Shown here one piece after another: positions 6,741 through 62,929 of a DNA stretch of 64,000 bases; position 1 is the first letter of the stretch; each line of letters begins with the position of its first letter. The translations under genes were made by a program, and so were the position numbers. Location: assembly GCA_964505415.1 (NCBI GenBank), contig CAZDHW010000002.1:45226-109225 (forward strand), in the 5' to 3' direction. Below the pieces are notes generated by a model. It saw only the letters and a list, made by a program, of their open reading frames with translations. It had not been told where the DNA came from and did no database searches. The DNA is from an uncultured bacterium (GTDB lineage: Bacteria; Hydrothermota; Tepidihabitantia; Tepidihabitantales; DTDR01).

Positions 6741-6817
6741 ATTTACCCCTCCCTTATAATAATCTTTTATTATAAAGAAACTTGAAAAAAAATCAAGTTT
6801 TAGTATTCTATTTAACT

Positions 6818-9454: not shown

Positions 9455-10962
9455 AAATCCTTTGGATTGATGATGAAATTGAACTTTTAAAACCTTTTAT
9501 CTATTTTCTTAAAGAAAAAGGGTACGAAATAAAAGAAGTGAATAATGGCATTGAAGGTTTAAATAAAATAAAAGAAGAAAATTTTGATTTAGTCTTTTTA
9601 GACGAGATGATGCCCGGTTTAGATGGTTTGGAAATTGCTCGGAAGATAAAAAATTATGATCCCAATATTTTTGTAGTGATGGTTACAAAAGTAAGTGACG
9701 AAGATTTCATTGATGAAGCCTATGCCAATTTGGTTGATGATTTTATCCTTAAACCTTTAAATCCAGTCCAGATTTTGGCCGTAATTAAAAGGTTATTAGA
9801 AAAAAAAGAAATCTTTAAAGAAAACTTAGTGCGTGAGTATTTAAAAATTCTTTCCGGAACAAAAGATTTTGAAACTTTTGAAGAATGGTGTGATTTTTAT
9901 CAACAATTGATAAAATGGCGAGAATATCTTAATCGATTTTCTTTAAATGATTTAAAAGAAAGTTACGAAGATATTTTAAAAGAGGGTAATGAAAATTTTG
10001 CTACCTTTATTGAGGAGAATTATTGTGATTGGTTAAAAAATAAAAAAGGGCCAATACTTTCTCACCAATTTTTTGAAAATTTTGTTAAGCCCCATTTGGA
10101 TAAATTGCCTTTATACTGGATAATTTTTGATTCGCTCCGGCTTGATCAGTGGTATTTTCTTTATAACATTTTGAAAGAACATTTTTTAATAAAACAGAAT
10201 TTTTATTGTTCGATTCTTCCTTCAGCAACACCTTATGCTCGTAATGCTTTGTTAAGCGGTTTAACACCGAAAAAAATTTTTGAATATTATCCAGAATATT
10301 GGGTATTTACTGATGTTGGACAAAATCGCTACGAAGAACAGCTTTTTCAAAAACTCTTAGCTAGAGAAAGAATTTCTTTAAAATATTTTTATTTAAAAAT
10401 TATAAGGATGGAAGACCTAATTGAGAAATTTGACTATCTTCTAAAGCCTGACGTTGGGATTGTGATAGTCATCATAAATTTTTTAGATTTTCTTATCCAT
10501 TCAGCTCGGGAAACTTTGTTTATTAAAGAAATTGCTGAAAATGAAGATTCTTTGTTAGAATTTACTAAAATCTGGTTTAACTCTTCTTTAATTTTTCAAT
10601 TTTTAAAAAAACTTAAAGAGAACGAGAGAAAAATAATTATTACTTCCGATCACGGATTTATTAAAGTGAAAAGGCCGACAATTATTTATGGAGGGCGAGA
10701 GATTTCGCCTAATCTTCGTTACAAATCAGGCGGTGGAATAACCATTGATAAAAAAGCTGCCTGGCTTTTAGAACCGAAGGAATTAGAATTGCCACAAGAA
10801 TTTTTGGGTGAAAAATACGCCATTTGTAAAAGCGATTATTATTTTATTTATCCTACCAAACCTAAAGAATATGAAAAAATTTATAAATTGACTTATCAAC
10901 ATGGAGGTATTTCACTTCAGGAAATGATTTTACCGGTAGGAATTTTATACCCCCTTGATTAA
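9451..10962 (+). CDS. response regulator with CheY-like receiver fused to a PglZ/alkaline-phosphatase-like effector domain (PorX-like)
   Basis: Receiver region MKILWIDDEIELL...DLVFLDEMMPGLDGLE...VVMVTK. C-terminal AP-superfamily motifs IIFDSLRLDQW, IIITSDHGF and YQHGGISLQEMILP as in PglZ. 503 aa, against roughly 518 aa recalled for PorX of P. gingivalis. Confidence 0.7.
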   Translation: MKILWIDDEIELLKPFIYFLKEKGYEIKEVNNGIEGLNKIKEENFDLVFLDEMMPGLDGLEIARKIKNYDPNIFVVMVTKVSDEDFIDEAYANLVDDFILKPLNPVQILAVIKRLLEKKEIFKENLVREYLKILSGTKDFETFEEWCDFYQQLIKWREYLNRFSLNDLKESYEDILKEGNENFATFIEENYCDWLKNKKGPILSHQFFENFVKPHLDKLPLYWIIFDSLRLDQWYFLYNILKEHFLIKQNFYCSILPSATPYARNALLSGLTPKKIFEYYPEYWVFTDVGQNRYEEQLFQKLLARERISLKYFYLKIIRMEDLIEKFDYLLKPDVGIVIVIINFLDFLIHSARETLFIKEIAENEDSLLEFTKIWFNSSLIFQFLKKLKENERKIIITSDHGFIKVKRPTIIYGGREISPNLRYKSGGGITIDKKAAWLLEPKELELPQEFLGEKYAICKSDYYFIYPTKPKEYEKIYKLTYQHGGISLQEMILPVGILYPLD

Positions 10963-10990
10963 ATTTATAAATTTATTTATAATAAATTTA

Positions 10991-11500
10991 ATGCCTGAAT
11001 TTACTTTTTTAGAAATTTTAAAAAAAGAACATTTTTTGATTGAAAGGGCATTACGAACCATGACTCTTTTGATAGTCAAAGACCAGTATTTAGAAAGAGA
11101 ATTTCAATTGGTTTACCAGATAATAAAAGATTTTGTAGAAGATAATCATTGTGCCAAAGAAGAAGAGATTTTATTTCCATTAATAAGAGAATACGAAATT
11201 GATGCCCAATTGGTGATGGTTAATGAGTCAGAAAAAAGAAAAGAAATTATTGAAACCTTGGAAAAAGGATTAAAAGATTTGGATAAAGAGAAATTTTTGG
11301 TAGGTTTACAAGATTTTATAGAAATTTTTGCTCGTCATATTTTTAAGGAAGAGGGTCTTATTTTTCCTGCCTGCGAAGCTCTTTTACCATCGGATATTAA
11401 TGAAAAAATTGTTAAAGATTTTAAAGAATATGAAAGAGATAACAGGGATTATGATTATTTTCTAAAAATCGTTGAAGATTTAGAAAAGATTATTTTCTAA
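10991..11500 (+). CDS. hemerythrin-like (HHE cation-binding) domain protein
   Basis: Two H..KEE..(L/I)FP motifs ([22 protein letters not shown]). ATG at 10991 is preferred over the upstream TTG, which would overlap the regulator's stop. Confidence 0.6.
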
Positions 11501-23494: not shown

Positions 23495-25225
23495 TTAATT
23501 GGTAATTATCACTTTATATCTCTCACAAGAATTAGCCGTTTTTACAACTAAGAAATAGATGCCGCTTTTTAAATTTTTGGGAATTCCCAATTGATAATGA
23601 TGGGTGCCGGAAGAGAATTCTTTATTAAATATTACCTTTCCAGTGATATCGGAAAGAGAAATATTAAGAGAAGTTTTAGTATTTAAATCTAAGGATAAAT
23701 AGTTTCGGTTTACGATTGGATTGGGATAAATTTTCAGGCTGAATAGTTTATTGGTATTTCCTTCAGCAATTCCGGTTTCTAAATATTGCCTTGGAACTTG
23801 ATGAACAACAACTGGGTTAGTAGTCATTGACCCTTCACCTTGAACATAAAATCCCGCATTTAAGTCTATTAAATAGGTTATCCAACAATAATCATCAACA
23901 ATTGGTGCTAAGAATGGAAATCTTTTTGATGTTTGGTCAGGTTCAGTAATTCTTTTTGGAGGTGCCCAAGTGAGCCCACCATCGGTAGAAGCAGTTCCCC
24001 AAATGTCGGCTCTTAATCTTTCGGTTGTGGGTTCGTAATTAACAGGATCAAATTGTTCCCAAACAACATAAAGGTTTCCGTTTTCCGGATTTTGACCAAT
24101 TGAAGGTCGACAGGCAAAGGTCGCATTGTAACCTACGGTAGCTGCTAATGTTTCGGGCATAATTCGGCAAATCCTTGTTAATTCCGGATTTCTTCCGGGA
24201 ACATAATGCCACATTTCCACAGGAATAATTCTACCGGTATCTCTGATATTTGGTGTAAAACAAAGGACGAAGTTTGGTCGATCATCTCTATCAAAGAAAC
24301 CGCCAACGGAAGGAAGCCAAAGTTCAGGTAAAGTTTCACTACCTGGAGTGAAGATTGGTGGAATTGGGAAGGGGATTACATCACTCCAAGTTTCGCCACC
24401 GTCAGTAGAAATCCGATAAGCACCGCTATCTGGTCCAGTACCATCCCATTCAGTCCAGAAGATAACTACTTTGTCACTCCTTTTGGAAGCAAAAATTCCT
24501 TGGGCATTACCTAAGGGAGCGATGGGCTCACCAGGTTGAGGAGCAATCAATCTGGGCTCCTCAGGATTGCCCCAATCCCTTATTCGAATATAAAAAAGTC
24601 TATCTCGCGCACCGCCCGGGTCATCTTCTACCGCTAATACGTGAATCCAACCGTTGGCAGTTATTGCAATTGGTGGCCAAAGATAACCTTCTTGACAATC
24701 ACAGTAGTCAAATATTCCTTGTCCAGGAGCAACGTCTTTAGCAATTCGCGGAATAAGTCGTTGAGTTCCAGCAACATGACCAACAATATATTCAATTCCG
24801 TCCAACGGATTAACATCCAAATTGCCAAAGCCAGCCCGCGCATTTAAAACATCAATACCATCGTGACCAAACATCCATTGATGGGTAGTTTTGTCGTAAA
24901 AATTATATCTCATATTTCTGTCAGGAAAAGGATTTGCTTGAAGAGAAGTCATACCGGTAACATGAACGCCTCGCATATCATTATAAATCCTTTGCCAACC
25001 ATGGCTATTAAACTGCCAATCGTAGGTAGTAAAGAAAACAGTATCAACCCTGCCTACGAATTGAGAAACTAATACTTCCGCTGGTTTTTTGGTCGGTTGC
25101 AATTGGGCTTTTGATGGGTGACTATTTTTAACTTCTGGAGGCAACGCCTTTATCGGTATAAGATACTCTTTTGGTAAAGCAAATAAAACTAAAAGAGGAA
25201 TTAAAATAACTAATAATTTACGCAT
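23495..25225 (-). CDS. secreted BNR/Asp-box repeat (sialidase-like beta-propeller) protein with T9SS C-terminal sorting domain
   Basis: Signal peptide. Asp-boxes STDGGETWSD and STDGGLTWAP. C-terminal ~80 aa LKIYPNPIVNRNYLSLDL...SGIYFLVVKT is typical of Por-secretion CTDs (TIGR04183-like). Confidence 0.75.
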   Translation of the reverse strand: MRKLLVILIPLLVLFALPKEYLIPIKALPPEVKNSHPSKAQLQPTKKPAEVLVSQFVGRVDTVFFTTYDWQFNSHGWQRIYNDMRGVHVTGMTSLQANPFPDRNMRYNFYDKTTHQWMFGHDGIDVLNARAGFGNLDVNPLDGIEYIVGHVAGTQRLIPRIAKDVAPGQGIFDYCDCQEGYLWPPIAITANGWIHVLAVEDDPGGARDRLFYIRIRDWGNPEEPRLIAPQPGEPIAPLGNAQGIFASKRSDKVVIFWTEWDGTGPDSGAYRISTDGGETWSDVIPFPIPPIFTPGSETLPELWLPSVGGFFDRDDRPNFVLCFTPNIRDTGRIIPVEMWHYVPGRNPELTRICRIMPETLAATVGYNATFACRPSIGQNPENGNLYVVWEQFDPVNYEPTTERLRADIWGTASTDGGLTWAPPKRITEPDQTSKRFPFLAPIVDDYCWITYLIDLNAGFYVQGEGSMTTNPVVVHQVPRQYLETGIAEGNTNKLFSLKIYPNPIVNRNYLSLDLNTKTSLNISLSDITGKVIFNKEFSSGTHHYQLGIPKNLKSGIYFLVVKTANSCERYKVIITN

Positions 25226-25236
25226 TTTTCCTCCTT

Positions 25237-27069
25237 TTAATTAATTATTATTTTTTTCTTGTATGTTTTTTTGCCATTATTAAATAGGCAATAAAAAGTA
25301 CCTTTTTTGCCTTTGACATTCCAGATAACCGAATAATCACCTTTCTCTTTTCTTCCTTCTTCTAAGACTTTTACAATTTGACCGGTGATATCCAAGATAG
25401 AAAGTTTCACAAAAGCTGGTTCGTTTAGTGAATAATTTATCTTTACCTTATCTTTGGTAATTGTAGGATAGACAATTAATTTATTAGCCAAAAGATTTTT
25501 CTTTTGGTTTTCTTCAATTCCAACTTCTACTAATAAAGAGCAAGGAACTTGTAAATAAAGCACTGGATTATTAGTGACCACTCCTTCATTCTGAGGAACT
25601 CCACCGGCATCTTTATCGTTAATATAAGTTATATGTAAATGATTGTTAAAAGCAAATGGTGCTAAGGAGAAATAATCATCATCTTCACACATTCCTGGAG
25701 GCGCTCCGGGACTGGGTGAATTTGTTAAATTCAATACTTGGCCAATCTGTCCTCTTACTCCCCAAGTTCGACCGCCATCGGTAGAAACCGCCGCGTATAA
25801 TTCCCCGTTTATTCTTCTTCCTTGAGAAATATCAGTAGTATCTAAATTTCCAATCCAAACACAATATATATTTCCGTAATTATCAATTGCTAATTGGGGC
25901 CTATCCGCTGGTCTTCGCCAGGCATCGTTTTGGACATTGGGATAAGGCGAATACCACCAAGAATCACCAACAACTGAAAGATGTCCGGGACCAGAAACTA
26001 AAGTAATCCCGGTCTCTTCGCTCCAATGTCTAATCCGAGAAAATCCAGGATAAGTTGCTGGCCCCTGGCTACCTACCATTGAAAGAATTTCTGTCCAAAC
26101 TACATGTAAATTGCCATTTAAATCATAAATTGCATCACAATCAGTATAGGCAAATTCGTGGGGAAGAGTATCAGAAGGGTATTGGTAATTAGTGATTTGT
26201 CTTGGAGGTGTCCAAGTAGCACCACCATCATAAGATTCTCTTATCCAAACATTTTGTAAGACTTGAGAGTGCCTTTCTGGTAAATCAGAAGTATAAGCAA
26301 TAACTACTTTATTTCCATTTGGTTGGGCATAGATATCACCAGAAAGACAGGCCATTACAGTATCATTCATTATTGGCATCCAATTGGTAAAAGTATTTCC
26401 TCCGTCGGTTGAACGAGAATAATAGAAATCTTCAGAGGCACCAGCTGTCGGTGGTCTACCATATCCTAAAACATGAATTATTCCGGTGTTGCCGATTGTT
26501 CCGTGAGGCCAAATAATCTGATTGCCGTAAGGAGAAAAATTTGTGTCTGGTTCTATTGGTTCATTAAATATTCCTGTTCCCGGAGCAATTTCAATGGCTA
26601 AAGCCGAATATAAAGCACTTCCTCGTTGATGGTGAAAGAAACAGCATGCGCGGCCATCAGGAAACATTCCAAAAGTTACATATCCTGCCCGATAACTTCC
26701 ACTTGCCTGAACACCCATTCCTAATTGAACAGTGTCATCGTAATAAGCATTATAGTAGCAATATCTATTAGGATAGTTTGAAGAAGAATCGGGAGAGTGC
26801 ATCCAATCAAATCCCCAAATATTATTAGCATATTCTATTCTTGAACCAAGAGTACCATTCTGTTGATAATCAATAAAAGTTTGGGATAAAAGAATACCCG
26901 GTGATAAAGTAAAAGTTGGCGAAATAATCACGGGCAAAGAAACTTTCTCTAAACCAGTAGAAAAAGAAAGAGGAGAATAAAGTTGCCGATGTTTTAAGGT
27001 TAAAAATTTGGAATTAGGAAGAGAAAATAAAAAAGAGATTAAAAAAATAAAAATAATTGTTTTTTTCAT
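25237..27069 (-). CDS. secreted BNR/Asp-box repeat protein with T9SS C-terminal sorting domain (tandem paralog)
   Basis: Signal peptide. Asp-boxes STDGGNTFTNW, SYDGGATWTPP and STDGGRTWGV. CTD LIVYPTITKDKVKINYSL...GTFYCLF. Confidence 0.75.
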   Translation of the reverse strand: MKKTIIFIFLISFLFSLPNSKFLTLKHRQLYSPLSFSTGLEKVSLPVIISPTFTLSPGILLSQTFIDYQQNGTLGSRIEYANNIWGFDWMHSPDSSSNYPNRYCYYNAYYDDTVQLGMGVQASGSYRAGYVTFGMFPDGRACCFFHHQRGSALYSALAIEIAPGTGIFNEPIEPDTNFSPYGNQIIWPHGTIGNTGIIHVLGYGRPPTAGASEDFYYSRSTDGGNTFTNWMPIMNDTVMACLSGDIYAQPNGNKVVIAYTSDLPERHSQVLQNVWIRESYDGGATWTPPRQITNYQYPSDTLPHEFAYTDCDAIYDLNGNLHVVWTEILSMVGSQGPATYPGFSRIRHWSEETGITLVSGPGHLSVVGDSWWYSPYPNVQNDAWRRPADRPQLAIDNYGNIYCVWIGNLDTTDISQGRRINGELYAAVSTDGGRTWGVRGQIGQVLNLTNSPSPGAPPGMCEDDDYFSLAPFAFNNHLHITYINDKDAGGVPQNEGVVTNNPVLYLQVPCSLLVEVGIEENQKKNLLANKLIVYPTITKDKVKINYSLNEPAFVKLSILDITGQIVKVLEEGRKEKGDYSVIWNVKGKKGTFYCLFNNGKKTYKKKIIIN

Positions 27070-48996: not shown

Positions 48997-51069
48997 TTAT
49001 TTAATGAAAATTACCTTTCTTCCCGACCAAATCTTTTCTTTGGAAATAAGGAAATAGATGCCGGTTTTTAAATTTTTGTTATTAATTTTTTGGCCAAAAG
49101 AATTAAAAATTAAATAATCCTTGTTAAAAAGATTTTCTAAATCTTTTTTAAAATAAATGGTCGGCATTTTTTGAATCCACAAGGAAATAGACTTATTCTC
49201 TTCTATTGCTATCGTCCTTTCACGATAGGAATAAAATTCAAAAGTTTTGTTGCCGCAGATAAAGAAAAATGTTTGAAAATCAGGTACATACACCATTGAG
49301 CTGCCTTTTGTTTTATTGATTGGTAAAGATTCAACCAAATACCAACTATCTCCTAGGGTATATTTCCAAAGTTGGGCTGTACCTCCTTTAAGGCAATAGA
49401 CTTTACCCTCTTTATAAGCAAGGGCAGTTCCATTTTTTGGTTTCTTTTTCTTTCCGCTATTTTCCGGTTTTTCCGGAAGCGAAGAAAGGAAAGTAAAGGA
49501 ATCAGTAAAAATATTATATTTATAAAAATCGCCATATTTCCCTTTCAAAATATACAAAGTAGCTCGACCATCATAAGTTAAGCAACTTCCTTCATCCATT
49601 GGTTTACCACTGGGAGCAATGGGCAATTCTTTTCTTCTTAGCCAAGTATCGCCTTCAATATAATAAGAATAGAAACTATTAGTTTTTGAACCATAAAGAA
49701 GATAGATAAAACTGGAATCAAGTTTTTTAACATAAACTAAATCGCAACCGCTCTTCAATTTTGTTTCCTTTCCTGAAGGATATTTAAAACCGTAAGGAAC
49801 ATCTTTTTTCCTTTCCCATTTTCTTTCGGAAATATCATACCGCCAAAATTCTAAGGTATTACCACCTTTAATAAGATAAATGAAATTGTGGTTATCACTG
49901 GCTAAGGCACAACCCCTTTTTATCTTTCTCTTCTTTTCTCCACCAGGAACAGTTTCTAATCTTTGCCAATTATCGGTCAAAATATCATAAAGAAGAAAAT
50001 TATTGGTTCCGCTACCGGTGATGGCATAAAGATAGCGAGGGGGTATATAAACTAAATCGCTACCGTCTTTTACCGGTTTATCGGCAATTAAATCTTTTCT
50101 TTTTTTCCAACCGGGTTCAGGTAAACTAAGAACAACAATCGTATCATAATATAAAATTGCTGGATTATATTGATTAGTAATAAGGGAACAAATAACCGGA
50201 TGAAAACCAGCAGAAAGTCTTATGTTTTCTAACACTACGGTGTCATAAGTAGGGGAGGCGATTGCTGAAGAAAGATGACCGTTTCTTATAAAATGATTTT
50301 CACCAATCCAAATAGTTAAAAGATAATCTCTTTCAAAGATTGAATCGTTACGAGTAATTATTTTCATATTAAAAGGAACATCAGCAAAAACAGTCTCGGG
50401 TATTAAGTTTTCAATATAAAAACAATAAGGAGTAAAAGTGTCTATTAAATTTATAGTGTCTTTAATTTTTGAAGAAATTGTCCAGATATTAGGTCCAAAA
50501 TAAGAAGTATCCCAAACAGTATTAAAAATTTGAAATTTTAAAAAATCACCGCTTCTTCGCCAAACTTTCACTGTCAAAGTGTCGTAAGGTTGAACTCCCA
50601 AGGGAGTTAAATTTAAAGCATAATAATACCAGAGATTTCCCCGTTGAGAAGTTAATTGACAGGAGTCAATTAAAAATCTATTATTTCTTTTTAAATAAGC
50701 TTTCATATAAGCTACTGGTTCTAAAGGTTCATAAGGTAAAATATCGGAGATAACTAAAGTTACTCCGTTAGGATAAATATCAAAAATTTGAGTTGCTTCA
50801 CTTTTTCGCCAATTCTTAATAAAAAAACTTAAACTTTCCGAAAAATTTGACAAAATTCCTAAGGTTTCCCCTAAGGGGTCGGCAAAAAATTGGTAGCGAG
50901 CAAAACCATTGCCTAACCGAAAAATTTCGGCATAAATAGTGTCAGGAGTATTTTGAGTAAAAACTTTAATAGTTTCAATAGGTATTTCTGGAGAAAGTCT
51001 TATAAACCCGGTCATCAATTGAGCAGAAATAAAAGAGAAGAATAAAAAAGCGGATATAAAATATTTCAT
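48997..51069 (-). CDS. secreted Kelch-like beta-propeller repeat protein with T9SS C-terminal sorting domain
   Basis: Signal peptide. At least five Kelch-like repeats (LYAITGSGTNNFLLYDILTDNWQRL; IYLIKGGNTLEFWRYDISERKWER; ...). C-terminal ...KTGIYFLISKEKIWSGRKVIFIK. Confidence 0.7.
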   Translation of the reverse strand: MKYFISAFLFFSFISAQLMTGFIRLSPEIPIETIKVFTQNTPDTIYAEIFRLGNGFARYQFFADPLGETLGILSNFSESLSFFIKNWRKSEATQIFDIYPNGVTLVISDILPYEPLEPVAYMKAYLKRNNRFLIDSCQLTSQRGNLWYYYALNLTPLGVQPYDTLTVKVWRRSGDFLKFQIFNTVWDTSYFGPNIWTISSKIKDTINLIDTFTPYCFYIENLIPETVFADVPFNMKIITRNDSIFERDYLLTIWIGENHFIRNGHLSSAIASPTYDTVVLENIRLSAGFHPVICSLITNQYNPAILYYDTIVVLSLPEPGWKKRKDLIADKPVKDGSDLVYIPPRYLYAITGSGTNNFLLYDILTDNWQRLETVPGGEKKRKIKRGCALASDNHNFIYLIKGGNTLEFWRYDISERKWERKKDVPYGFKYPSGKETKLKSGCDLVYVKKLDSSFIYLLYGSKTNSFYSYYIEGDTWLRRKELPIAPSGKPMDEGSCLTYDGRATLYILKGKYGDFYKYNIFTDSFTFLSSLPEKPENSGKKKKPKNGTALAYKEGKVYCLKGGTAQLWKYTLGDSWYLVESLPINKTKGSSMVYVPDFQTFFFICGNKTFEFYSYRERTIAIEENKSISLWIQKMPTIYFKKDLENLFNKDYLIFNSFGQKINNKNLKTGIYFLISKEKIWSGRKVIFIK

Positions 51070-51114
51070 TAAAAAATAATAATATGAATTTGAGAAAAAG
51101 TCAATATTTCTAAT

Positions 51115-51836
51115 TTATTTCATTTTAACTATCTTTTTCTTATTGATCTTTCCTTCTTTTGTTTTTAAATAATAAAAATAGACTCCCTTAGGTAATTCTT
51201 TTTCTTTACTGTCAAAGTTTAATCTTTTCATTAATTTTCCAAAAGAATTATAAATCAGAATTTCTACCGGCTTGGTTTTCAATGAATATTGGGAAAAAAT
51301 CTCAGCAATTCCCAATTGCGATGGTAAACTAACAACAATAAAATCAGAAGTGGTATCATTTCCCCAGCTTGAGCCACAAATATAAAGGTTATTGTCAATA
51401 CCAGAAGCAATAGCAGTAGCCCAATCATAATAATTTCCCGGTCCATTATAACGTTAAACCCATCTTTCCCTTCCTTCATTATTTAAACTGATAATAATAA
51501 AATCAGTATCAGAGCCTCTTTCATAAGCTTTTCCACATGCATAAATATTTCCATCCTCTCCATAAATAATGGAATAACCATACCCGTTTCTATATTGATA
51601 TACCCATCTTTCTCTTCCTTCAGGGTTTAAACTAATAACTAAAAAATAAGATAAAGTGTCGTTAATAAAACTACTTCCGCAAATATAAATGTTTCCATCA
51701 AGACCGTAGACAAGAGAGTTAGCATATTCGTAATTTTTTGGTCTATTGTAGCGATAAATCCATTTTTCCGACTGAGCTGAAGAAAATGTGTAAAAAATGG
51801 TAAATAAAATAGAAAAAGATAATTCTTTTTTTCATA
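51115..51836 (-). pseudogene. disrupted gene for a small SBBP (beta-propeller) repeat protein with T9SS CTD
   Basis: Minus-strand frames give signal peptide (M)KKELSFSILFTIFYTFSSA|QSE, then SBBP repeats W(I/V)YRYNxPxNxxDxAxAIA...GNIYxCG x3, then CTD ...KGVYFYYLKTKEGKI. Broken by a +1 frameshift in an A7 run just after the ATG (~51824-51832) and an in-frame TAA where Tyr is expected (WV*RYNGPGN, ~51457). Confidence 0.6.
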
Positions 51837-51840
51837 TTAT

Positions 51841-54800
51841 TTAAGATTTGGCAATAATATCAAGTTTTATAAGGTAAATACCGGTTCCCAATTTTTTAAT
51901 ATCTACTACCAAATGATTGGTATTGTTTTTTGTTTGATAGATAACTTCTCCGAGGGCATTATAAATTGTTAGTTTAACAGAAAATTTAAGAGGTAATGGA
52001 TAATAAATTTTAAGATAACCCTTTACCAATGCGAGTATCGCAGAAAAATCTTTTAAATCTTTTGTTTTCTTATTAATATTAATAATTTCGTCGCTATTAG
52101 GCCACAAAAACTCGTGTTAGGAATATAAAGTCAGAATTCATTAGTATTATTACCCACAAAGGCATAAAGACCACCAGTCCTTTTGGAATAAGTAAGTGCG
52201 CCACCTCCTTTTACTTTTTTGTTGGCGTACCTTCGGGTTTACCAACATCTAATTCAATATTCCATTGGTCGGTTTTTGGGTTGTAAGAAAAGAACTCTAA
52301 GGTATTGCCACCTTTTAAAGCATAAATAAGACCATTATCAGGATTATAAACACCGGCGCTACCTTCTCTTGCTTTCTTTTTTATTACTCCAACTATCGTT
52401 GGTCGTTGTCATATAAAATTCATTCGTCTCGCCACCGACTCTTAAGGCATAAATCTTTAGTGTATCGCTGGGAACACACACAATCCATGAACCTTTTTCC
52501 ATTTGTCAGCTGGTAAAGTTGCCAGATTGCAAATCTCAAAAGAATCAGCAACAATATTAAATTTAATCCATTCATTATTATTAGAACCGCAAATTATATA
52601 AATATAATTAGAACCATCAAAAGCCATTGATGAACCTTTTATCTCTTTGGTGAAAGGAATTATATATTCTTTCCAAGAATCTTTTTCTGGCTTATAGCGC
52701 CAGAACTCTTTAGTGTTATTCCCTTTGATCACATAGATGAGTGAGTCACCATCACCACAAATAGAAGCCCCGTATTTCACATTTTTCTTTTTTAAGGTGA
52801 GATAGGAAAAAGGTACTTCGCTCTTCTTTGTCCAAATATTGGTAGTCACATCGTATTCCATTAAGTCTCTTGTATTATTACCAACAAGGCATAAACTTTA
52901 TCACCAAGCGATGCTAAGGCACCTCCATTTTTAATTGGTGTTGTCGCACCACTAACATTTGGCATCTTATGCCATCCAGGGGTTAAGGAAATTACGCGGA
53001 ACGAATCAACGATTGAATCGTTTGCTGGATTTATGTCACCTGATAAAGCAGTCTTTAAAATAGTTGTAAAATTACCGGTATCCGTACAGAAATAAGGTAT
53101 AAAGCTTAAAGTAACTTCGGTATCCGGAAGTACATTATTATAATTAGAATCAATATACACCAAAAGATTATTTTTATAAATCTTAAAGTAAGTCCAGAAT
53201 GATGATGGATAATCACCATAATTTTTCACTTTACCAGAAACTGGGTACGGTATATTTGAATCTATTAAAATTACACCGCTTGGCGAAACGATTTTAATTG
53301 CTCCCACATCTAAAATTCCTCCTCTATAAGAACTTACTGCCAAATCATTATTAGGATTTAAATCCCTTTCAGTGATTGTTCGGAAATAAGCATAATGACT
53401 TCCCGATGTTACTGTAATGGATTCATCAAAAACAATAATTTCTTCCCAATCTGGTGGTATATAAGAAATTGTTTTTTCTTGAAGATAATTTATTTCCGGA
53501 ATTGAACATTTAACCATAATATTAAATTCATCAAGGGTTCCGTAATTTTTTACCTTACATTTAGGTAGCAATTTTGTGTTGAGAGGATAATTACCATTTG
53601 GGTGAATAATTTGGGAAATGCCCACATCTTTCCAATACACAAAAAAATTCTTTTTTAGGGTGTCATTTCTTCTATTTTCATCGGGTGGCCAATAAACAAT
53701 TGCTACACCAATGTAAGGACCGGCTGTTTCTGGAGACCAAGAAGGATAGATTAATAAGGTATCCCTATTAGGAAGTAAAGAATCAATAAATTTTGCTTCA
53801 CTATAACGAAGAGGCCATTAGTATCGTAAATTTTAAAATAAACAGCAAAATTTTGAGCAATCGTTTTTCCATAATTTTGAATAATTATTTTTGGTTCAAG
53901 GGGTAATTTAGGGATACTATCAAGAGGAGAAATAATCTCTTTTACTCCAATATCACATAATTTAAAATCTTGTATCGTTTATAATAAATCCGATAACAAT
54001 AATTAGTATAATGTCCGAAATCTCGCCGAAAAAGATGAAGATTACCGTCTGGGGTAGCAACAATTTCTGGAAAGTATCGAGAGCCGGTATTAAAATGAAC
54101 AACCGTATCCGGCCCCTCCCAATTTCCTTCTGGAGTTCTTACAAATCTTACAATGTCATAAGAAGGACCTATCTCATTAGTTCTTACTACTACTTGGAGG
54201 TTATTGAATTTATCAACTGCACAAGATGGATTTTCCCGGCGATAACTACTTTGAAGAACTACCACCTCTGACCAACCTCTATTAGTTTTTACTCTGTGGG
54301 CAATATGGGGATAATATTCATTAGCAAGATAAGCTTCCCAAACTACATGGACATTTCCTTCGCTATCAATAGCAACTCGGGGGTTATAATTATGATAACT
54401 ATTAGGAAATACTGATAAAGTTTCTATTGGTCCCCATAAACCATTGGAATTTCTCATTCGATAGAAAATATTATATAAAGCATTACCTATCGGAAGGTAA
54501 GAACTCCATACAATATGAATCCTATTTTGACCATCAACCGCAATAGCCGGTTGTTGAGAAGTATACATCCAGTCCATTGGTGATGCGGTATCAATATCTA
54601 CTATTATTGGAGAACAAGAAGGATATATTTTTGCGTAACCAATTCGATATCGACCACCCCAGGAGGCAGAAAATGTGCAATGTGCAGTATCTCCTTTTCC
54701 TCCGGCAATTTTAGGATAATTAGGGTAATTATTTGATTTTAATGGTAATGAGCATATTTGGGTATAATTTCCGTTCGCTAATTTTGCTCTATAAAAAAGC

Positions 54801-55172: not shown

Positions 55173-56297
55173 TTAGGAAAGTGGGTATTGGTAAATACGG
55201 TATTTTTTGTAAAGTTTTACTTTCCAAACTTCTATTGGTTTTATAATATCTATATTATCTTCTAAAATCCAGGAAACTTCTCCCCATTCATAACCAAGTT
55301 TTTTACCTCCTAAAAAGGTTTCGTAATAAAGTAAAGCATCGGCGCCAGTTTTTCTAAATTTCTTTTTTATTCCCAATGCCCAAAGCCGGGCACTTTTTAT
55401 CCTTCTTTGATAATAGAAAAATTTGAAAATTCCAAAGGGAAAGAGTCGGCCATTTAGATGGCATAATACTTCGTTATAATTAGGTAAAGCAATGCTAATG
55501 CCTACCGGTTCATTATCAATTTCCACAATAGGAATAATCTCACTTTTAGCAATTGGTTTTAATTTCCTACCTAAATAGTTAATTTCTTCATCGGTTAATG
55601 GGGTAAAATCCCAGTTTTCTTGCCAGGCATCATTGTAGACTTCTTTAATCTTTGGTAACTCTATATCTAATTTTTTTAAATTAACCTTCCTCACAATAAA
55701 CTTTTCTTTCTTTTTTAATTTTTCTACCACATTTTGAACCTTTTCCGGAACAAATTGGTTTAAATCGATATAATAGGCGTATAAATCTTTTGCTTTACTC
55801 ATTCCGTATTTTTCAACCAGTTCTAAATAATAAGGTGGATTATAAGGCATTTTAATAGTGGGCGGTGAAGAAAATCCTTCGTATAAAAAGGCACATTCAT
55901 CATTTAAAGCCGGATTAGCCGGACCAACCATCAACTCCATTCCTTTTGCTTTTAACCATTCTTTGGCTTTATCAAAGAGAGCAGAGGCGATATCAAAATC
56001 GTTAATACTTTCAAAGAAACCGAAGAAACCAACCTTTTTTTGATGATGGTTTATATAATTATAATCAATAATTGCAGCAATCCGTCCAACAATTTCATCT
56101 TTAAAATAGGCTAAAAAAAGTTCTCGCTCCGCATGATTAAAATAGGGATTTTTCTCTTTGGAAAGAGTTTCTTTTACCTCACTGATAAGGGGAGGCACAA
56201 AATTTTTATCGTTACGGTAAATTTTAAAAGGTAGTTTGACAAATAAATCTAACTCTTTTTTATTTTCTACTTTTTTAACCTTAATAATTTCTTTCAC
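55173..56297 (-). CDS. two-domain GNAT/FemAB-like N-acyltransferase (possible bacterial ceramide-synthase-like or amino-lipid N-acyltransferase)
   Basis: 374 aa. Acyl-CoA N-acyltransferase-like pattern in both halves (…FLAYFKDEIVGRIAAIIDYNY…; …WALGIKKKFRKTGADALLY…). Sits 3 nt downstream of the Spt-like gene. Confidence 0.5.
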   Translation of the reverse strand: MKEIIKVKKVENKKELDLFVKLPFKIYRNDKNFVPPLISEVKETLSKEKNPYFNHAERELFLAYFKDEIVGRIAAIIDYNYINHHQKKVGFFGFFESINDFDIASALFDKAKEWLKAKGMELMVGPANPALNDECAFLYEGFSSPPTIKMPYNPPYYLELVEKYGMSKAKDLYAYYIDLNQFVPEKVQNVVEKLKKKEKFIVRKVNLKKLDIELPKIKEVYNDAWQENWDFTPLTDEEINYLGRKLKPIAKSEIIPIVEIDNEPVGISIALPNYNEVLCHLNGRLFPFGIFKFFYYQRRIKSARLWALGIKKKFRKTGADALLYYETFLGGKKLGYEWGEVSWILEDNIDIIKPIEVWKVKLYKKYRIYQYPLS

Positions 56298-56300
56298 CCT

Positions 56301-57485
56301 TTAGCCTTTATTAAATTTTAATTTTTTAAAAACTTCTAAAGCAAAATCAATATCTTCTTCGGTATGGGTTGCCATGTAACTTGTTCTGATTAATGAACGA
56401 TTTGGCGGTACTGCTGGCGGTATTACGGGGTTAGCAAAGATTTTATTTTTAAATAAAGAAAGCCAAAATTTTAATGTTTTCATATCTTCACCAATAATTA
56501 TCGGAATAATTGGTGTCACACTATTGCCAGTGTCATATCCCAATTCTTTTAATCCCTTTCTCATTTTTTCAGTAATTCGCCAAAGATGTCTTCTTCTTTC
56601 CGGTTCATTTTTTATAATTTCTAAGGCTTTTAAGGCAACGGCTACCGAAGCCGGTGGTAAACTAGCAGAAAAGATTAAGGAACGGGCATTATGGCGAATA
56701 TAAGCGATTACCTTCTTTTCTCCAACAACAAAACCACCAATAGTAGCAAAGGATTTGGAAAAGGTTCCCATTATTAAATCAACTTCCGCTTCTAAACCGA
56801 AATGTTCTGCTGTTCCCCGGCCATTTTCTCCGAGGACACCAATTCCGTGGGCATCATCAACTAAAACTCGGGCATTATATTTCTTTGCCAAATTTATAAT
56901 TTCGGGCAAATTACAAATATCGCCTTCCATACTAAAGACTCCATCAACCACAATCAATTTTCCGGAATTTTTGGGTAAGGATTTTAAAACCCTTTCTAAA
57001 CTCGCCATATTATTGTGTAAAAATCTTTTTACATTGCCAAAAGATAATCGACAACCATCAACAATAGAAGCATGGTCAAGCTTATCAGTAATGACATATT
57101 CATTTTTACCAACTAAAGCAGAGATAATACCTAAATTTGTTTGATAACCAGTAGAAAAGACAATACAATCATCCTTATTAAAAAATTTTGCTAATTTTTC
57201 TTCTAATTCCAGATGCAAATCTAATGTTCCGTTTAAAAATCTTGAACCGGTACAGCCGGTGCCATATTTTCTTATTGCTTCTATTCCGGCTTCTTTTAAT
57301 CTAGGGTCATTAGTTAAACCCAAATAGTTATTAGAACCTAACATCAGATATTTTTCACCCTTGATAGTAACCCAATTGCTCGCTTCCGATTCAATTGGTT
57401 TAAAATAAGGATAATATCCTTGGTTAATAGCTTCTTCTACCTTTTTATAATAACTTTCACATTTATCAAATAAATCCATAATCAA
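56301..57485 (-). CDS. alpha-oxoamine synthase, serine palmitoyltransferase-like (Spt/BioF/Kbl family)
   Basis: PLP-lysine motif [13 protein letters not shown]. Motifs [49 protein letters not shown] and a C-terminal [12 protein letters not shown] resemble bacterial Spt more than BioF, from recalled sequences. Confidence 0.8.
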
Positions 57486-58909
57486 TAAGCCCGAGCATAA
57501 TAAATTATTATTTTTGTTTTTTTATCGCAGACAATACATTTTCCCTTTTCCTTATTTTTATTTTCCAAAGGGATACATCGGGGAGTGGTGTTTGTTTCTT
57601 CCTTAATTTTTTCTTCACATTCTTTTTTTCCGCACCAAAAAATCTTAGCTATTCCTTTCTTTTCCACAATTTCTTTTTTCATCTTTTCTAAATCGTCGTA
57701 AAAAAAGATTCTTTCTTTAAGAGATTTTTCCGCTTTAAGATAGAGTTTTTTTTGAATATCAGCCAAAATGTGTTTTAATTCTTCTTTTAAATTGTTTATT
57801 TTAATGTTTTCCTTTTTTTCGTAATCCCGAGTGACTATTCTTACTTCGTCTTTTTCCACTTCTTTCTTACCGATTTCTATTCTTAAAGGAACACCTTTTA
57901 ATTCCCAATGGTTAAATTTCCAGCCCGGTGTGTACTCTTTACGGGCATCAAAATAGACAGAAAATTCCTTTTTTAATTCTTCTGAGAGGTTTTCGCATCT
58001 TTCAATTATTCTTTGGTCATCTTCTCCGTAAAGAATGGGGATAATAACAATTTGAATAGGAGCAATTTTTGGTGGTAAGAAAAGACCATTGTCATCACCG
58101 TGAATCATAATTAAAGCGCCAATTAATCTGGTTGATACTCCCCAAGAAGAACCCCAAGGATATTTTTCTCGATTATCCTTATCAAGAAATTTAATAGCAA
58201 AAGCTTTAGCAAAATTTTGTCCTAAGTTATGGGTAGTTCCTGATTGGAGCGCTTGACCATCGGGCATTAAAGCTTCAATAGTGTAAGTTCTTAAAGCCCC
58301 AGCAAATCTTTCCGAGGGTGGTTTAAGACCGGCAATTACCGGAAGAGCCAATTCTTCTTTTAAAAAATCAATGTATAAATCTAAAATCATCTTTGCTTCT
58401 TTCTCCGCTTCTTCAAAGGTTTGGTGTAAGGTATGGCCTTCCTGCCATAAAAATTCAGTAGTTCGCAAAAATAATCTGGTGGTCTTTTCCCAGCGAACAA
58501 TATTACACCATTGATTTATTAAGATTGGTAAATCGCGATAAGATTTTACCCATTTGGCATACATACTACAGATAATCGCTTCCGAAGTTGGTCTTACGGC
58601 TAATCTTTCCGAAAGTTCTTCTTCACCGCCCTTTGTTACCCAAGCAACTTGGGGAGCAAAACCTTTCACATGTTCGGCTTCCTTTTTTAAAAAACTTTCG
58701 GGAATAAAAAGAGGAAAATAGGCATTTTGATGGCCGGTTTCTTTAAATCTTTTATCCAAACCTTTTTGAATATTTTCCCAAATACTATAACCATAAGGTC
58801 TAATTACCATACAACCCCTTATTGGTGCGTAGTCAGCTAATTCGGCTTTTAGAATTACTTGGGTATACCATTCGGAGAAATTTTCGCTCTTTTTGATAAG
58901 TTCTTTCAT
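57482..58909 (-). CDS. proS: proline--tRNA ligase, archaeal/eukaryotic-type
   Basis: 475 aa with no bacterial INS editing insertion. C-terminal zinc-binding domain ([22 protein letters not shown]...CIVCDKK) and terminal ...YYARAY tyrosine typical of archaeal-type ProRS. Confidence 0.9.
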
Positions 58910-58912
58910 AAT

Positions 58913-59680
58913 TTAAAAGATATCTAAAATTTTTAAATTGTCAATAAGAAGAATGATAAAGATTAAAAAAAGATAATAACCAAAATAATAAAATCTTCTT
59001 TGATAAACCAATTTTTTTAAAAGATAAAGCGAAAGAAGTCCAAAGATAAAAGAAGCAAAAAATCCTGAAAGATAAACTGAAGAAAAAAGGAGTTCGGCTT
59101 TTTTATGGAATTCCCAAATATTAGCACCGATAATTGTTGGTATTCCTAAAAGAAAAGAGAAATTAAAACTTATTCCTTTTTCTATTCCTAAATATAAAGC
59201 ACCGGCAATAGTTGCTCCCGAACGAGAGATTCCTGGAAAAATACCCAGGGTTTGAAAAATGCCAATAATAAGAGCTTGACCATAATTCAAATCAAAAAAC
59301 TTTTCTCTTTGGTATTTAGTAAAAAATATTAAAAAACTGCTGATAAGAAAAAAATAGGGGAGATAGTTGAAATTTTCAAAAATCATTTCTACTTTTTCTT
59401 TAAAAAAGAAGCTTATAGGAATAATCGGTATCAAAGCAACAACAATTTTTAAAAAGAGGAAGATATTTTTTCTTTTAACCTCTTCTTTAATTAGATTAAA
59501 AAAGAAAAAGATTAAAGCCAAAGTTGTTCCCAAATGGAGATAAAGAAGAAAATCGATATCAAACTTTGATTTTAAAATCCTTTCTAATAATAACAAATGG
59601 CCAGAACTGGAGATAGGTAAAAATTCAGTTAATCCTTGAACCATTCCCAAAATAATTGCTTTTATCACTGTCATTTTCAA
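58913..59680 (-). CDS. uppP: undecaprenyl-diphosphatase
   Basis: VQGLTEFLPISSSGHLLL motif with 7-8 TM helices. 255 aa. Confidence 0.9.
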   Translation of the reverse strand: MKMTVIKAIILGMVQGLTEFLPISSSGHLLLLERILKSKFDIDFLLYLHLGTTLALIFFFFNLIKEEVKRKNIFLFLKIVVALIPIIPISFFFKEKVEMIFENFNYLPYFFLISSFLIFFTKYQREKFFDLNYGQALIIGIFQTLGIFPGISRSGATIAGALYLGIEKGISFNFSFLLGIPTIIGANIWEFHKKAELLFSSVYLSGFFASFIFGLLSLYLLKKLVYQRRFYYFGYYLFLIFIILLIDNLKILDIF

Positions 59681-61293
59681 AATTGGAAAATATAACCCAA
59701 ATAAATCCTGGTGTCAAAAAGATTAAAACCAAAGGGAAAAGCAAAATTAAAATAAAAAATTCCGTTTTTAGTTAAAAAATCAACCCCGCTGCCACAACTT
59801 TTTAAAAAAAACCATTTATCATCTTTACCAATTCCGTAATCAAAAAAAATATAAGGAAAGAAAATATCTTTAAAAAGGTATTTAAGATGATTGCGGAAAA
59901 TTAAAAAAGAAGTAGCCGGATATTTATCTTCGGAAAATCCGCGCACAAACTCCTGACCGCCCAAAGAGAACTTTTCCCAATAATAAAGGGTGTCCAAAAA
60001 ATAAATATTGCCACCCAAAATTTCATTATGAAAAAGCCAATATTTTTTAAAAAGCGGGAATAAAAATTCTAATCGGGTTTCTAAAGTAAATTTTAATTGA
60101 GGGTTTTTCTCTTTTAGCTTTCTTTCTCCCATTAAGGTTTTTAAAGAGAAATAAGTTCCTTTCTGATAATTATTTATTTTGTTATCAAAGATAAACTCTT
60201 GTCCGAAAGAAAAGGTATGGTAAGCTGGGATTTCGGAAATCACTGAATTGTAAAATTCATTTTGGAGGATAAAATTTAAAGAAAGTTCTTCCACTTTAGT
60301 GGGTAAATAAATATGACTGGCAAGGGCGAAAAGGGAAGCGGTGGTATCGAAGCTTTTAAAACTGGCGGTAAAAAAGATTTTTTTGAAGAACAAAAAATAA
60401 GGTTGGTTATAAGCAAAAAGATAGAAATTTCTGTGAAAAAATTTTTCTAAAGCGAGTTCCCACTCTTCCCAATAGTTTAAAAAATTGAAAACTTTTAAGT
60501 TTAAATTAAAATAAAATTTTTTCCCATCCGGCAGATAAGAAAGAAAAAAAAGAAAATTATTTTTTCGTGAAAAAGGAAAGTAAAAATTTAAAAAATATTC
60601 TCCTTCTTCATTCTTACTAAGAAAATAATCGCTACATGTGAGTTTGAGGTTTTTATAAATATTTCTTTTAAATTTTTCCACCAAACTTTTTTGGAAATAA
60701 AAAGGCTTAGTAAAACCACTGCTTTTTTTTAAAATCTGCGGAGGAATTATTATCTCTCCGGCAGCAAAAAGGTCATTAATTTTTACTATTTCTCCTTCAT
60801 CGATAAAAATATCAAAATTTATTTTTTTATCCGTCAACTCAAAATTTTTAGGCTCAATTTTTACAAAGGGAAAGCCAATCTCCCAATAAAAATCAATAAT
60901 TTTTTTTATAATTCTGTTGAGATTTTCTTGAGAATAATCCTTTTCGGTAATTAATTTTAAAAGGTTTTCGGCTTGGATAAACTTTGAATAAATATTAACC
61001 TTTCCTATTTGGTATCTTTCCCCTTCTTCTACTAAATAAAAAAGAATAAGATTTTTTCGTCTTTTCTGCATAGCAATATTTACCTTCACATCGAAGAACC
61101 CTTCTTTTAGATAAAAATCAATTATCTCCCTTTGAAGTTCAAAAATCGCTTCTTCTTTTAAGGGTAGCGAATAAACTATTTTTGGGTTTATATTTTTTGT
61201 TCCTTTAATTTCAATTTTGTTAATAGGAATTTCTTTGTTGTTTAAAAAAAAGCTGAAAAAGATAATTATTTTTGAAAAAGATAGGGACGCCAA
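59677..61293 (-). CDS. Omp85/BamA-family outer membrane protein (POTRA + beta-barrel), short form
   Basis: N-terminal POTRA-like segments (INKIEIKGTKNINPKIVYSLPLKEEAIF...), a long Tyr/Phe-rich beta-barrel and a C-terminal aromatic ...YLGYIFQF. At 538 aa it is shorter than canonical BamA. Confidence 0.5.
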   Translation of the reverse strand: MASLSFSKIIIFFSFFLNNKEIPINKIEIKGTKNINPKIVYSLPLKEEAIFELQREIIDFYLKEGFFDVKVNIAMQKRRKNLILFYLVEEGERYQIGKVNIYSKFIQAENLLKLITEKDYSQENLNRIIKKIIDFYWEIGFPFVKIEPKNFELTDKKINFDIFIDEGEIVKINDLFAAGEIIIPPQILKKSSGFTKPFYFQKSLVEKFKRNIYKNLKLTCSDYFLSKNEEGEYFLNFYFPFSRKNNFLFFLSYLPDGKKFYFNLNLKVFNFLNYWEEWELALEKFFHRNFYLFAYNQPYFLFFKKIFFTASFKSFDTTASLFALASHIYLPTKVEELSLNFILQNEFYNSVISEIPAYHTFSFGQEFIFDNKINNYQKGTYFSLKTLMGERKLKEKNPQLKFTLETRLEFLFPLFKKYWLFHNEILGGNIYFLDTLYYWEKFSLGGQEFVRGFSEDKYPATSFLIFRNHLKYLFKDIFFPYIFFDYGIGKDDKWFFLKSCGSGVDFLTKNGIFYFNFAFPFGFNLFDTRIYLGYIFQF

Positions 61294-61775
61294 TTTTCGG
61301 GTATTTCCGAAAGGGAATTTAACAAAAAGGTGATATAAGTTGGTGCCTTTGGTTTTTTTAACAATCTCAGGTTGGTTTCACTCAATCTTTTATTACCTTT
61401 TAAAGTATTACATTCCACACAGGCACACACCAAGTTTTCCCATTCATCTTTACCGCCATAGGCTTTAGGAATGATGTGGTCAGTGGTTAAAGGAACATTT
61501 TTTCTTCCACAATATTGACAGGTATAATTATCTCTTCTTAAGATATTTTTTTTAGTTAAAGGGATTTCTCTTCTTTTCACTTTTACATAATAGGCAAGCC
61601 GAATAACACTGGGCATTACCAAACTGGTGCTTGGGGTTCTTATTTTTCTGCCGTTTTCCGATTCAACCAACTCCGCTTTCTTCAAAAATAACAATTTAAG
61701 AGCCTTCTTCAATTTACAAATGGTTAAAGGTTCGTAGTTGGCATTTAGAAGTAAAATCTTTTTCTCAAACATCAC
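61266..61775 (-). CDS. HNH endonuclease family protein
   Basis: CQYCGRKNVPLTTDHIIPKAYGGKDEWENLVCACVECNTLKGNK is an HNH/zinc motif. 169 aa. Confidence 0.8.
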   Translation of the reverse strand: MMFEKKILLLNANYEPLTICKLKKALKLLFLKKAELVESENGRKIRTPSTSLVMPSVIRLAYYVKVKRREIPLTKKNILRRDNYTCQYCGRKNVPLTTDHIIPKAYGGKDEWENLVCACVECNTLKGNKRLSETNLRLLKKPKAPTYITFLLNSLSEIPENWRPYLFQK

Positions 61776-62929
61776 TCTTCAATCTTTATTCCTTGGAACC
61801 AAAGTTCTTCTTTAATCTTATCCATAATTATTTTAATTCTTTTTATTTCATTTTTACAATAATCATTATAGGGGCTTTCTTCATTCACTTTATTATAATT
61901 GTTTACTGCTTCTTTATACAAATAATAGGCTTCTTTTAACTGTTTATTTTTTTGGCTTTCTTCGGCTCTTCTTTTTTTGATATCGCCAGCAATCACAAAA
62001 GCCACATCCAAATTGGGAGAGATTGCCAATGCCTTTTTCAATTCCTTTTCCGCTTCGGCAAAATTACCCAATTGTTGATGATAATCGGCTAAATGGATAT
62101 GGGTCATTGGGTCATTGGGAGCTAAATTTAATGCTTTATTAAACATTTGAAGAGCATTCTTATATTTTTTTTGTTTTAAATAAACATCACCAACCTTTAA
62201 AATTATCGCCACATTATTAGGTTCTTTGGAAAGAATAAAATTATATTCATTAAGGGCTTTATCAAATTCATTCAATTCAAAAAGAACATCGCCGTATCTT
62301 TCTCGCAAAGCGAGCTCTTCCGAATAACGGGAAAGACATTTTTCAAACATATTTTTTGCTTCTTTAAATCTTTTTCTTTTTGTTAAAAATTCACCATATT
62401 TATAAAAAATATCAAGCCTATCCGGGCAGCGGTTAGTTAACAAAGAATATAAAGAATCGGCCTTTTTATCTTCTTTTGATTTCTCATAAATTGCGGCTAA
62501 ACCCAGATACAACTCCACATTGGTAGTATCTAAATTTATCCCTTTTTGATAAAGACTCTCCGCTTTTCTTAACTGACCTAATGAGAGATACAAATCACCC
62601 AAGGCTTCATAACCTTTACTATTTTTATTGTCAATCTTTAGGGCTTTTAAAAAGTATTCTTCGGCTTTTTGGGCATCCCGTAATTTTTTATAAGTATTGC
62701 CAATAGCGATATAGGCTTCGTAGTAATTAGAATCATAACTTAAAGCGGTATTAAAATTCTCTAATGCCTTTTCCCAATCACCTTGTTTATAATATTCCGC
62801 ACCAATACTATAATATTTCTCCGCCTCTTTCCTTCTTTCCAATAATTCTTCTTCCGTATATTTTTTTACTGTTGTGGTTGGTGCGCAACCCACAATTAAC
62901 ACTAATAATAATCCTAAATACTTTTTCAT
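61772..62929 (-). CDS. TPR-repeat lipoprotein
   Basis: Lipobox LLVLIVGC followed by at least 8 tetratricopeptide repeats (…AEEYFLKALKIDNKNSKGYEALGDLYL…). Confidence 0.75.
   Translation of the reverse strand: MKKYLGLLLVLIVGCAPTTTVKKYTEEELLERRKEAEKYYSIGAEYYKQGDWEKALENFNTALSYDSNYYEAYIAIGNTYKKLRDAQKAEEYFLKALKIDNKNSKGYEALGDLYLSLGQLRKAESLYQKGINLDTTNVELYLGLAAIYEKSKEDKKADSLYSLLTNRCPDRLDIFYKYGEFLTKRKRFKEAKNMFEKCLSRYSEELALRERYGDVLFELNEFDKALNEYNFILSKEPNNVAIILKVGDVYLKQKKYKNALQMFNKALNLAPNDPMTHIHLADYHQQLGNFAEAEKELKKALAISPNLDVAFVIAGDIKKRRAEESQKNKQLKEAYYLYKEAVNNYNKVNEESPYNDYCKNEIKRIKIIMDKIKEELWFQGIKIEE

Follow-up and report, generated by a model that had tools for sequence, protein, structure and literature searches.

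The locus and its setting

The locus consists of two adjacent genes on the minus strand, preceded by a string of further genes that run in the same direction. Throughout, 'the window' is the entire 64-kb stretch of DNA that was analysed. Based on ORF coordinates, and for the upstream string also on Pfam, the features are as follows:

57482..62929, minus strand: co-directional string 5' of spt, encoding a TPR protein, an HNH protein, a POTRA/ShlB-type outer-membrane protein, UppP/BacA and prolyl-tRNA synthetase (ProRS)
56301..57485, minus strand: spt-like gene, for a 394-aa PLP-dependent alpha-oxoamine synthase (AOS) that groups with the Bacteroidota/'CFB'-type serine palmitoyltransferase (Spt) clade
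56298..56300, minus strand: 3-nt spacer, from the spt stop codon to the bcerS start codon
55173..56297, minus strand: bcerS-like gene, for a 374-aa tandem-GNAT N-acyltransferase of the YghO/CC_1154 (bacterial ceramide synthase) family

A preliminary description of this DNA had already reported the two ORFs and the 3-nt gap, and its coordinates turned out to be exactly right. Given such tight spacing, the two genes are presumably translationally coupled.

The genes upstream are packed just as tightly, with 4-nt overlaps or 3-nt gaps according to the ORF coordinates, and the start of the AOS gene overlaps the stop codon of ProRS by 4 nt. The string and the spt-bcerS pair probably form one transcription unit. 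No terminator-like site was found on the minus strand between positions 55173 and 63000, in a promoter and terminator scan that performed no better than chance. The string is not conserved around the pair in related genomes, and the genes from TPR to ProRS are therefore considered to be outside the functional module.

The window has a G+C content of around 31%. The GNAT protein has its nearest homologues in candidate division WOR-3, at 82-90% identity. WOR-3 is an uncultured phylum within the FCB group, known from anaerobic sediments and hot springs. Elsewhere the window also holds T9SS sorting tails, which fit an FCB-group organism.

Several genes that might be expected near such a pair were looked for. 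The 64-kb window has no CerR-type reductase and no kinase or head-group gene. AcpR and AasR are missing both from the window and from the related loci described below. There is also no bioA, bioB, bioC, bioD or tdh in the window, which bears out the earlier remark that the AOS gene has no biotin-synthesis neighbours.

The alpha-oxoamine synthase

The preliminary description had placed the AOS closer to Spt than to BioF or Kbl, going by motifs. Model scores, structure database matches and a tree all agree with this.

The AOS has the Pfam domain Aminotran_1_2 (E 7e-57). Its top NCBIfam model is NF047600 (SerpalmtaseCFB), with 562.9 bits, where the equivalog cut-off is 640. Second is the betaproteobacterial Spt model NF047599, at 425.6 bits and under its cut-off of 500. 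These are followed by the models for the BioF/Kbl subfamily (415.7), bioF (TIGR00858, 408.7 with a cut-off of 426.45), Kbl (395.8), ALAS (255.9) and CqsA-type enzymes (242.7). The lead of NF047600 is around 137 bits over the next model, and around 150 over bioF and Kbl. As a positive control, the biochemically validated Spt of E. coli B does clear its own NCBIfam model, scoring 599.9 bits where 500 are required. Because 562.9 bits falls short of 640, NCBI's automatic naming would not label the AOS as Spt, and it is here called Spt-like, a member of the Spt clade but not a proven equivalog. This also sets it somewhat apart from the Bacteroidota 'CFB' Spt that NF047600 describes, as does its host, which is WOR-3-type and not Bacteroidota.

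Compared to all PDB sequences, the ten best matches of the AOS are all Spt structures. The Spt of S. multivorum scores 452 bits and those of Sphingomonas 303-315, with a Thermus BioF/Kbl enzyme at about 297. Lower down are cysteate-C-fatty-acyltransferase (CFAT) at 270 bits, Kbl at about 255 and BioF at about 217. CFAT was considered as an identity for the AOS, and rejected on its 270 bits versus 452 for Spt. Over aligned columns, the AOS shares 54% identity with S. multivorum Spt (PDB 3a2b / 8guh, 378 aligned residues), 42% with S. wittichii Spt and 39.5% with E. coli B Spt. Kbl follows at 36%, and no reference is further away than E. coli BioF, at 31.5%.

Phylogenetic placement came from a neighbour-joining tree with 100 bootstraps, computed on 53 sequences and 393 columns. 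In it, the window AOS, S. multivorum Spt and 45 of 46 GNAT-linked AOS sequences from other loci form a clade with 96% support, the exception being the AOS of locus L073. The sister group is the rhodobacterial Spt clade. All Spt references are together at 88%, with Kbl and BioF on the outside; these two E. coli sequences are the only outgroups, a thin sampling.

When aligned with the Spt references, the AOS has kept the catalytic residues: the His in DHASI, the DxxH motif as VDDAH, and the PLP-binding Lys in GTFSKS. It also has the GTGxxGSRxLNGT block, which in the reference alignment it has in common with the Spt references only. S. multivorum Spt has this block and the same PLP-Lys, His and Asp motifs. 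The C-terminal 'PPxxPP' motif, earlier offered as a sign of Spt, is indeed present (as IPPAVPP), but it does not discriminate, since BioF has RPPTVP in the same place.

The tandem-GNAT acyltransferase

The gene that follows was described earlier as encoding a two-lobed GNAT acyltransferase, and a candidate bacterial ceramide synthase (bCerS). The genetically validated Caulobacter enzyme CC_1154 (= CCNA_01212) goes by the name of CerS or bCerS. The GNAT protein aligns with YghO over practically its full length (aa 4-370 against YghO aa 7-377) at 34% identity (E 1e-74). With a positional orthologue from Roseomonas it shares 31% identity (E 3e-65). Among 264 family members, 45 residues of the GNAT protein are conserved in at least 90%, and 38 of these 45 are identical in both YghO and the Roseomonas protein. 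Examples are W225, N228, W229, E340, S342, W343, E346, N348, Y366 and R367. These results argue for the bCerS assignment.

The gene neighbourhoods of the homologues are informative as well. E. coli yghO was among the matches when annotated plasmid and chromid records were searched with the GNAT protein using tblastn. Its neighbours are a fatty-acyl-AMP ligase, an NAD-dependent epimerase/dehydratase, an ACP, a class I/II aminotransferase (spt) and lptF/lptG paralogues. The Roseomonas homologue, which is annotated as 'dATP pyrophosphohydrolase', is preceded by two LptF/G paralogues and a sterol desaturase and followed by an NTP-transferase. Also encoded in this locus are an ACP, a PLP aminotransferase, a DAG-kinase-family gene and a CDP-alcohol phosphatidyltransferase. 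It mirrors the Caulobacter sphingolipid region CC_1152-CC_1168 as described in PMC11324152.

For some members of the family a function is given by PMC9386255, where 'aca: CC_1154, yghO ECD_02850, Swit_3908 ...' is the acyl-CoA N-acyltransferase needed for dihydroceramide synthesis. The GNAT protein is tied to CC_1154 by way of YghO and this statement. A further homologue is found in a Prevotella record that comes without annotation.

Domain databases have less to say. The sole Pfam match of the GNAT protein is a weak one to Acetyltransf_1 (E 5e-5), and no membrane domain is matched. A search of the PDB by sequence found nothing, and NCBIfam has no model that matches the GNAT protein. NCBIfam has no model that matches YghO either, so this lack of family matches is uninformative. 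The predicted structure is a compact globular tandem GNAT. A globular protein with no Pfam membrane domain is compatible with the peripheral-membrane cytoplasmic enzyme of PMC11087976.

The preliminary description had also named two other families, OlsB/GlsB and FemAB. Neither fits. OlsB-type acyltransferases have a single domain (Pfam Acetyltransf_5) and are about 250-300 aa long; the GNAT protein is a tandem GNAT of 374 aa, and its weak Pfam match is to Acetyltransf_1, not Acetyltransf_5. A FemAB-type aminoacyl-tRNA-dependent peptidyltransferase was rejected in turn, as FemA and FemX are not what the GNAT protein most resembles.

Conservation of the pair

A genome scan with an alignment of the GNAT family delivered at least 599 loci. 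The best 80 of these, from more than 12 phyla, were analysed. In 50 of these best 80 loci an AOS gene is directly upstream of the GNAT gene on the same strand, and its product is 49-68% identical to the window AOS. In L073 a 43%-identical AOS is found downstream instead. About five of the non-paired loci among the best 80 are incomplete upstream of the GNAT gene. Linked loci include those of WOR-3, Zixibacteria, Nitrospirota, Deltaproteobacteria/Myxococcus, Gemmatimonadota, Ignavibacteria, Bacteroidota, Elusimicrobiota and Planctomycetota, and others besides. The gap between spt and bcerS has a median of 29 nt over 45 related loci, and in 15 of these the genes overlap or are at most 10 nt apart.

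Clustering of the neighbours in the best 80 loci shows one more strongly recurrent family, an NAD-dependent epimerase/dehydratase. It shows homology over the full length to the E. coli CerR orthologue (E 1e-41 to 1e-26), and in 28 of the best 80 loci it lies within 400 nt of the AOS gene.

The two enzymes also occur as one protein. Single-chain fusions were found in three independent 50%-identity clusters (representatives P0144, P0181 and P0249), in each of which an Spt-like domain at the N-terminus is followed by a bCerS-like one at the C-terminus. In P0144 the N-terminal half shares 56% identity with the window AOS. Such fusions are seen again in independent assemblies, the longest contig measuring 819 kb. 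With the pair in 50 of the best 80 loci, CerR in 28 and the fusions, the original reading of the two genes as a candidate sphingolipid locus is supported.

Some members of the bCerS family, for example in Aminicenantes, adjoin no AOS gene. Membership of the family is therefore in itself no proof of ceramide synthase activity.

The closest relatives of the window, which are of WOR-3 and Stahlbacteria type (L001, L034, L056 and L057), have no CerR next to the pair. There, spt and bcerS sit amid unrelated housekeeping genes, like purB upstream and leuB/leuC downstream. It follows that within the WOR-3/Stahlbacteria clade the conserved unit is spt-bcerS only. A search with a CerR-type alignment profile is uninformative on WOR-3, since its best 120 matches all carry Zixibacteria and Thermodesulfobacteriota names.

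Proposed function

The locus is best read as a module of two genes that together build the ceramide backbone, and we assign this reading a probability of roughly 0.8. The bacterium very likely makes sphingolipid (ceramide) backbones. While gene identities, homology, linkage and fusions can be read directly from the genomes, what follows on substrates, on whether acylation or reduction comes first and on the final lipid is predicted from the enzymes of Caulobacter, E. coli and Sphingobacterium.

In the proposed pathway, the AOS would act as a soluble PLP-dependent enzyme of Spt type that condenses a long-chain acyl thioester with an amino acid, L-serine being the likeliest, and so forms 3-ketodihydrosphingosine (3-KDS). 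As the surroundings hold no dedicated ACP or acyl-ACP synthetase, the acyl donor is probably acyl-CoA. S. multivorum Spt likewise has no adjacent AcpR or AasR, and this likeness suggests direct use of acyl-CoA. The tandem-GNAT bCerS homologue, itself predicted to use acyl-CoA, would then N-acylate 3-KDS in the cytoplasm, yielding an oxidised (3-keto) dihydroceramide. Finally, a CerR-type or other reductase encoded elsewhere in the genome may turn this into dihydroceramide. Acylation before reduction is the order given in PMC11087976.

It is possible that the same enzymes work with another amino acid, such as alanine, glycine or cysteate, and that the product is a 1-deoxy-ceramide, some other N-acyl amino-lipid or a capnine-type sulfonolipid. 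We hold this to be unlikely, although of all the alternatives it fares best. The AOS does stay under the Spt equivalog cut-off, and amino-acid specificity is not readable from sequence here. The Bacteroides Spt is known to take alanine as well (bioRxiv 2022.08.11.503646), and the supplement to the Black Sea study PMC11334938 has 1-deoxyceramides coming from anaerobes through the same enzyme set, with alanine replacing serine. Against this, the closest enzyme of known structure, with which the AOS shares its 54% identity and its 96% clade, uses serine. The cysteate enzyme CFAT is far lower, at 270 versus 452 bits, and 1-deoxy products would be a side activity of an Spt rather than a separate system.

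Far less probable is a reading in which the GNAT protein acts on small molecules, as an unrelated N-acetyltransferase of the amino-sugar or thiol type, and merely happens to follow an AOS. Its best structural neighbours are of this kind: the tandem-GNAT acetyltransferases MAB_4324, the C. acetobutylicum GlcN N-acetyltransferase, clavulanate ORF14 and MshD. These enzymes move acetyl groups from acetyl-CoA onto small polar acceptors, where the bCerS family is tied to long-chain-base lipids. These neighbours are however only 11-18% identical to the GNAT protein, and the PDB sequence search did not pick them up, in contrast to the full-length 34% identity to YghO, a CerS orthologue. A chance placement is also hard to square with an adjacency kept over more than 12 phyla, with the CerR homologue in 28 of the best 80 loci, or with natural AOS-GNAT fusions.

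A role for the AOS in biotin synthesis, as BioF, or in threonine catabolism, as Kbl, is rejected: the bioF, Kbl and 'BioF/Kbl family' models do score high (396-416 bits), as expected within one superfamily, and AOS and BioF have a C-terminal PPxxP motif in common, but bioF stays under its cut-off of 426.45 and some 150 bits under the Spt model, BioF and Kbl fall outside the 88% Spt clade, bioA/B/C/D and tdh are absent from the window, and a bCerS homologue is found linked to the AOS gene, with fusion of the two in some genomes.

The ceramide-backbone module may also say something about the order of the steps. Fusions usually join consecutive steps in a pathway. The operon and fusion architecture hints that the Spt and bCerS steps are consecutive, and fusions would therefore support an order in which acylation comes first and reduction later. 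Taken further, the WOR-3/Stahlbacteria pathway could have been reduced to a translationally coupled spt-bcerS pair without a linked CerR, the two enzymes being fused in other lineages, and 3-KDS would be passed directly from Spt to bCerS. This would be independent support for the disputed acylate-first order (Spt, bCerS, CerR), with 3-oxo-(dihydro)ceramides accumulating or a non-homologous reductase taking over. We put this forward tentatively, and would not be surprised to see it fail.

Relation to known systems

Ceramide synthesis in bacteria is not new, and this locus extends the known pathway to another lineage without representing a novel type of system. Spt-like, bCerS and CerR homologues co-localise in many uncultured phyla in the 'Spt-like clade B' of the Black Sea metagenomes (PMC11334938), and such sets have already been predicted there for about 40 phyla. 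This triad is reproduced in 28 of the best 80 loci. Unlike those clusters, the window and its four closest relatives have the spt-bcerS pair only. Neither the text nor the supplement of PMC11334938 mentions WOR-3, and among the papers searched none brings up WOR-3 together with Spt.

Like the bCerS of Caulobacter and E. coli, the GNAT protein is encoded next to spt and, in many relatives, next to a CerR homologue. Unlike in those organisms, the window is without LptF2/G2, AcpR, AasR, ceramide kinase and CerR. In Bacteroidota, the three ceramide genes are unlinked according to PMC11334938, whereas here bcerS starts 3 nt after spt.

The arrangement also differs from what is stated in PMC11324152, namely that cerS is always in a different operon from spt. 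In the window bcerS is immediately downstream of spt, in most related loci it is downstream of spt as well, and in some genomes the two are fused. Tight spt-bcerS operons and fusions contradict the generalisation that cerS is always transcribed apart from spt.

Implications

The new points are modest: spt and cerS are not always in separate operons, Spt-bCerS fusions exist, and there is a WOR-3/Stahlbacteria clade without a linked CerR.

The bCerS family is widely unnamed or misnamed, for example as 'hypothetical', 'N-acetyltransferase', 'YghO' or 'dATP pyrophosphohydrolase'. It has no model in Pfam or NCBIfam, and a profile made from the family would improve annotation.

A WOR-3-type lineage is now added to the bacteria that are predicted to make sphingolipids. 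The addition matters for reading sphingolipid and 1-deoxy-ceramide biomarkers from anoxic settings. The spt-bcerS operons and fusions in turn bear on whether bacteria carry out N-acylation before the reduction step. If the acylate-first reading is true, the anaerobes of this clade would accumulate 3-oxo-(dihydro)ceramides, or would use a non-homologous reductase.

Fused and multi-domain forms

The family of the bCerS-like protein (bacterial ceramide synthase, a tandem GNAT) contains single-chain natural fusions. These join an N-terminal Spt-like alpha-oxoamine synthase (AOS) of about 390 aa to a C-terminal bCerS-like tandem GNAT of about 365 aa, and they occur in several independent assemblies. 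Among the representatives of the family's 50%-identity clusters, P0144, P0181 and P0249 have this form; one instance lies at L085:1024-3357.

Other arrangements also exist. The 784-aa representative P0121 is a tandem pair of bCerS-like units, and in P0188, of 494 aa, an N-terminal PilZ domain is joined to one such unit. The PilZ domain points tentatively to regulation by c-di-GMP in certain lineages.

Genes around spt and bcerS in the window

Two genes lie upstream of spt as follows:

57482-58909 (-), prolyl-tRNA synthetase of the type that ends in a ProRS-C_1 domain, immediately upstream of spt
61266-61775 (-), small HNH-nuclease-like protein, called by eye from the translation

A bacterial-type proS is also found one or two genes away from bcerS in five deltaproteobacterial loci (L021, L054, L063, L064 and L068; L numbers denote loci carrying bCerS-family genes, among them the best 80 of at least 599). 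This proximity, there and in the window, may be coincidence or relic synteny. The HNH-like gene has a TPR-protein gene on one side and the gene for a POTRA/ShlB-type outer-membrane protein on the other, and belongs to the run of overlapping genes whose last members are spt-bcerS.

Elsewhere the window contains the following:

6782-8206 (+), ThyX, 474 aa, with two Thy1 domain stretches
8297-11500 (+), gene row of a histidine kinase, a response regulator-PglZ domain fusion and a hemerythrin-domain protein
23495-27069 and 48997-54577 (-), several Kelch/BNR beta-propeller-type ORFs

The ThyX represents a duplicated or tandem form of flavin-dependent thymidylate synthase, and the row that follows it is an unusual signalling trio. 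Pfam assigns Por_Secre_tail (T9SS) sorting domains to both ORFs at 23495-27069; some at 48997-54577 have C-terminal tails that resemble this domain by visual inspection alone. Between 51069 and 54577 the sequence is split into short ORFs, which are possibly decayed or frameshifted genes.

Neighbourhoods across the family

In Roseomonas mucosa plasmid p1-AD2, a bCerS/YghO homologue lies within a Caulobacter-like sphingolipid locus (L081:14935-16092). Its RefSeq name, 'dATP pyrophosphohydrolase', is probably a propagated misannotation.

A gene for a PAP2_3-family membrane protein repeatedly adjoins the bcerS/GNAT gene in Nitrospirota and Deltaproteobacteria (L010, L021, L026, L027, L062-L064, L068, L069 and L073). 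We take PAP2_3 to be the Pfam family of AUR1/IPC-synthase-type enzymes; the neighbour is a candidate head-group transferase.

In Aminicenantes and relatives, the bCerS-family genes adjoin no AOS (L012, L014, L016, L022, L025, L028, L032, L041 and L044). These loci have other conserved surroundings: an approximately 815-aa protein upstream, then small proteins of some 150 aa, a protein of about 506 aa, and ABC-transporter genes. Together, the lack of an AOS neighbour and this different context suggest that part of the family has a different acceptor or role.
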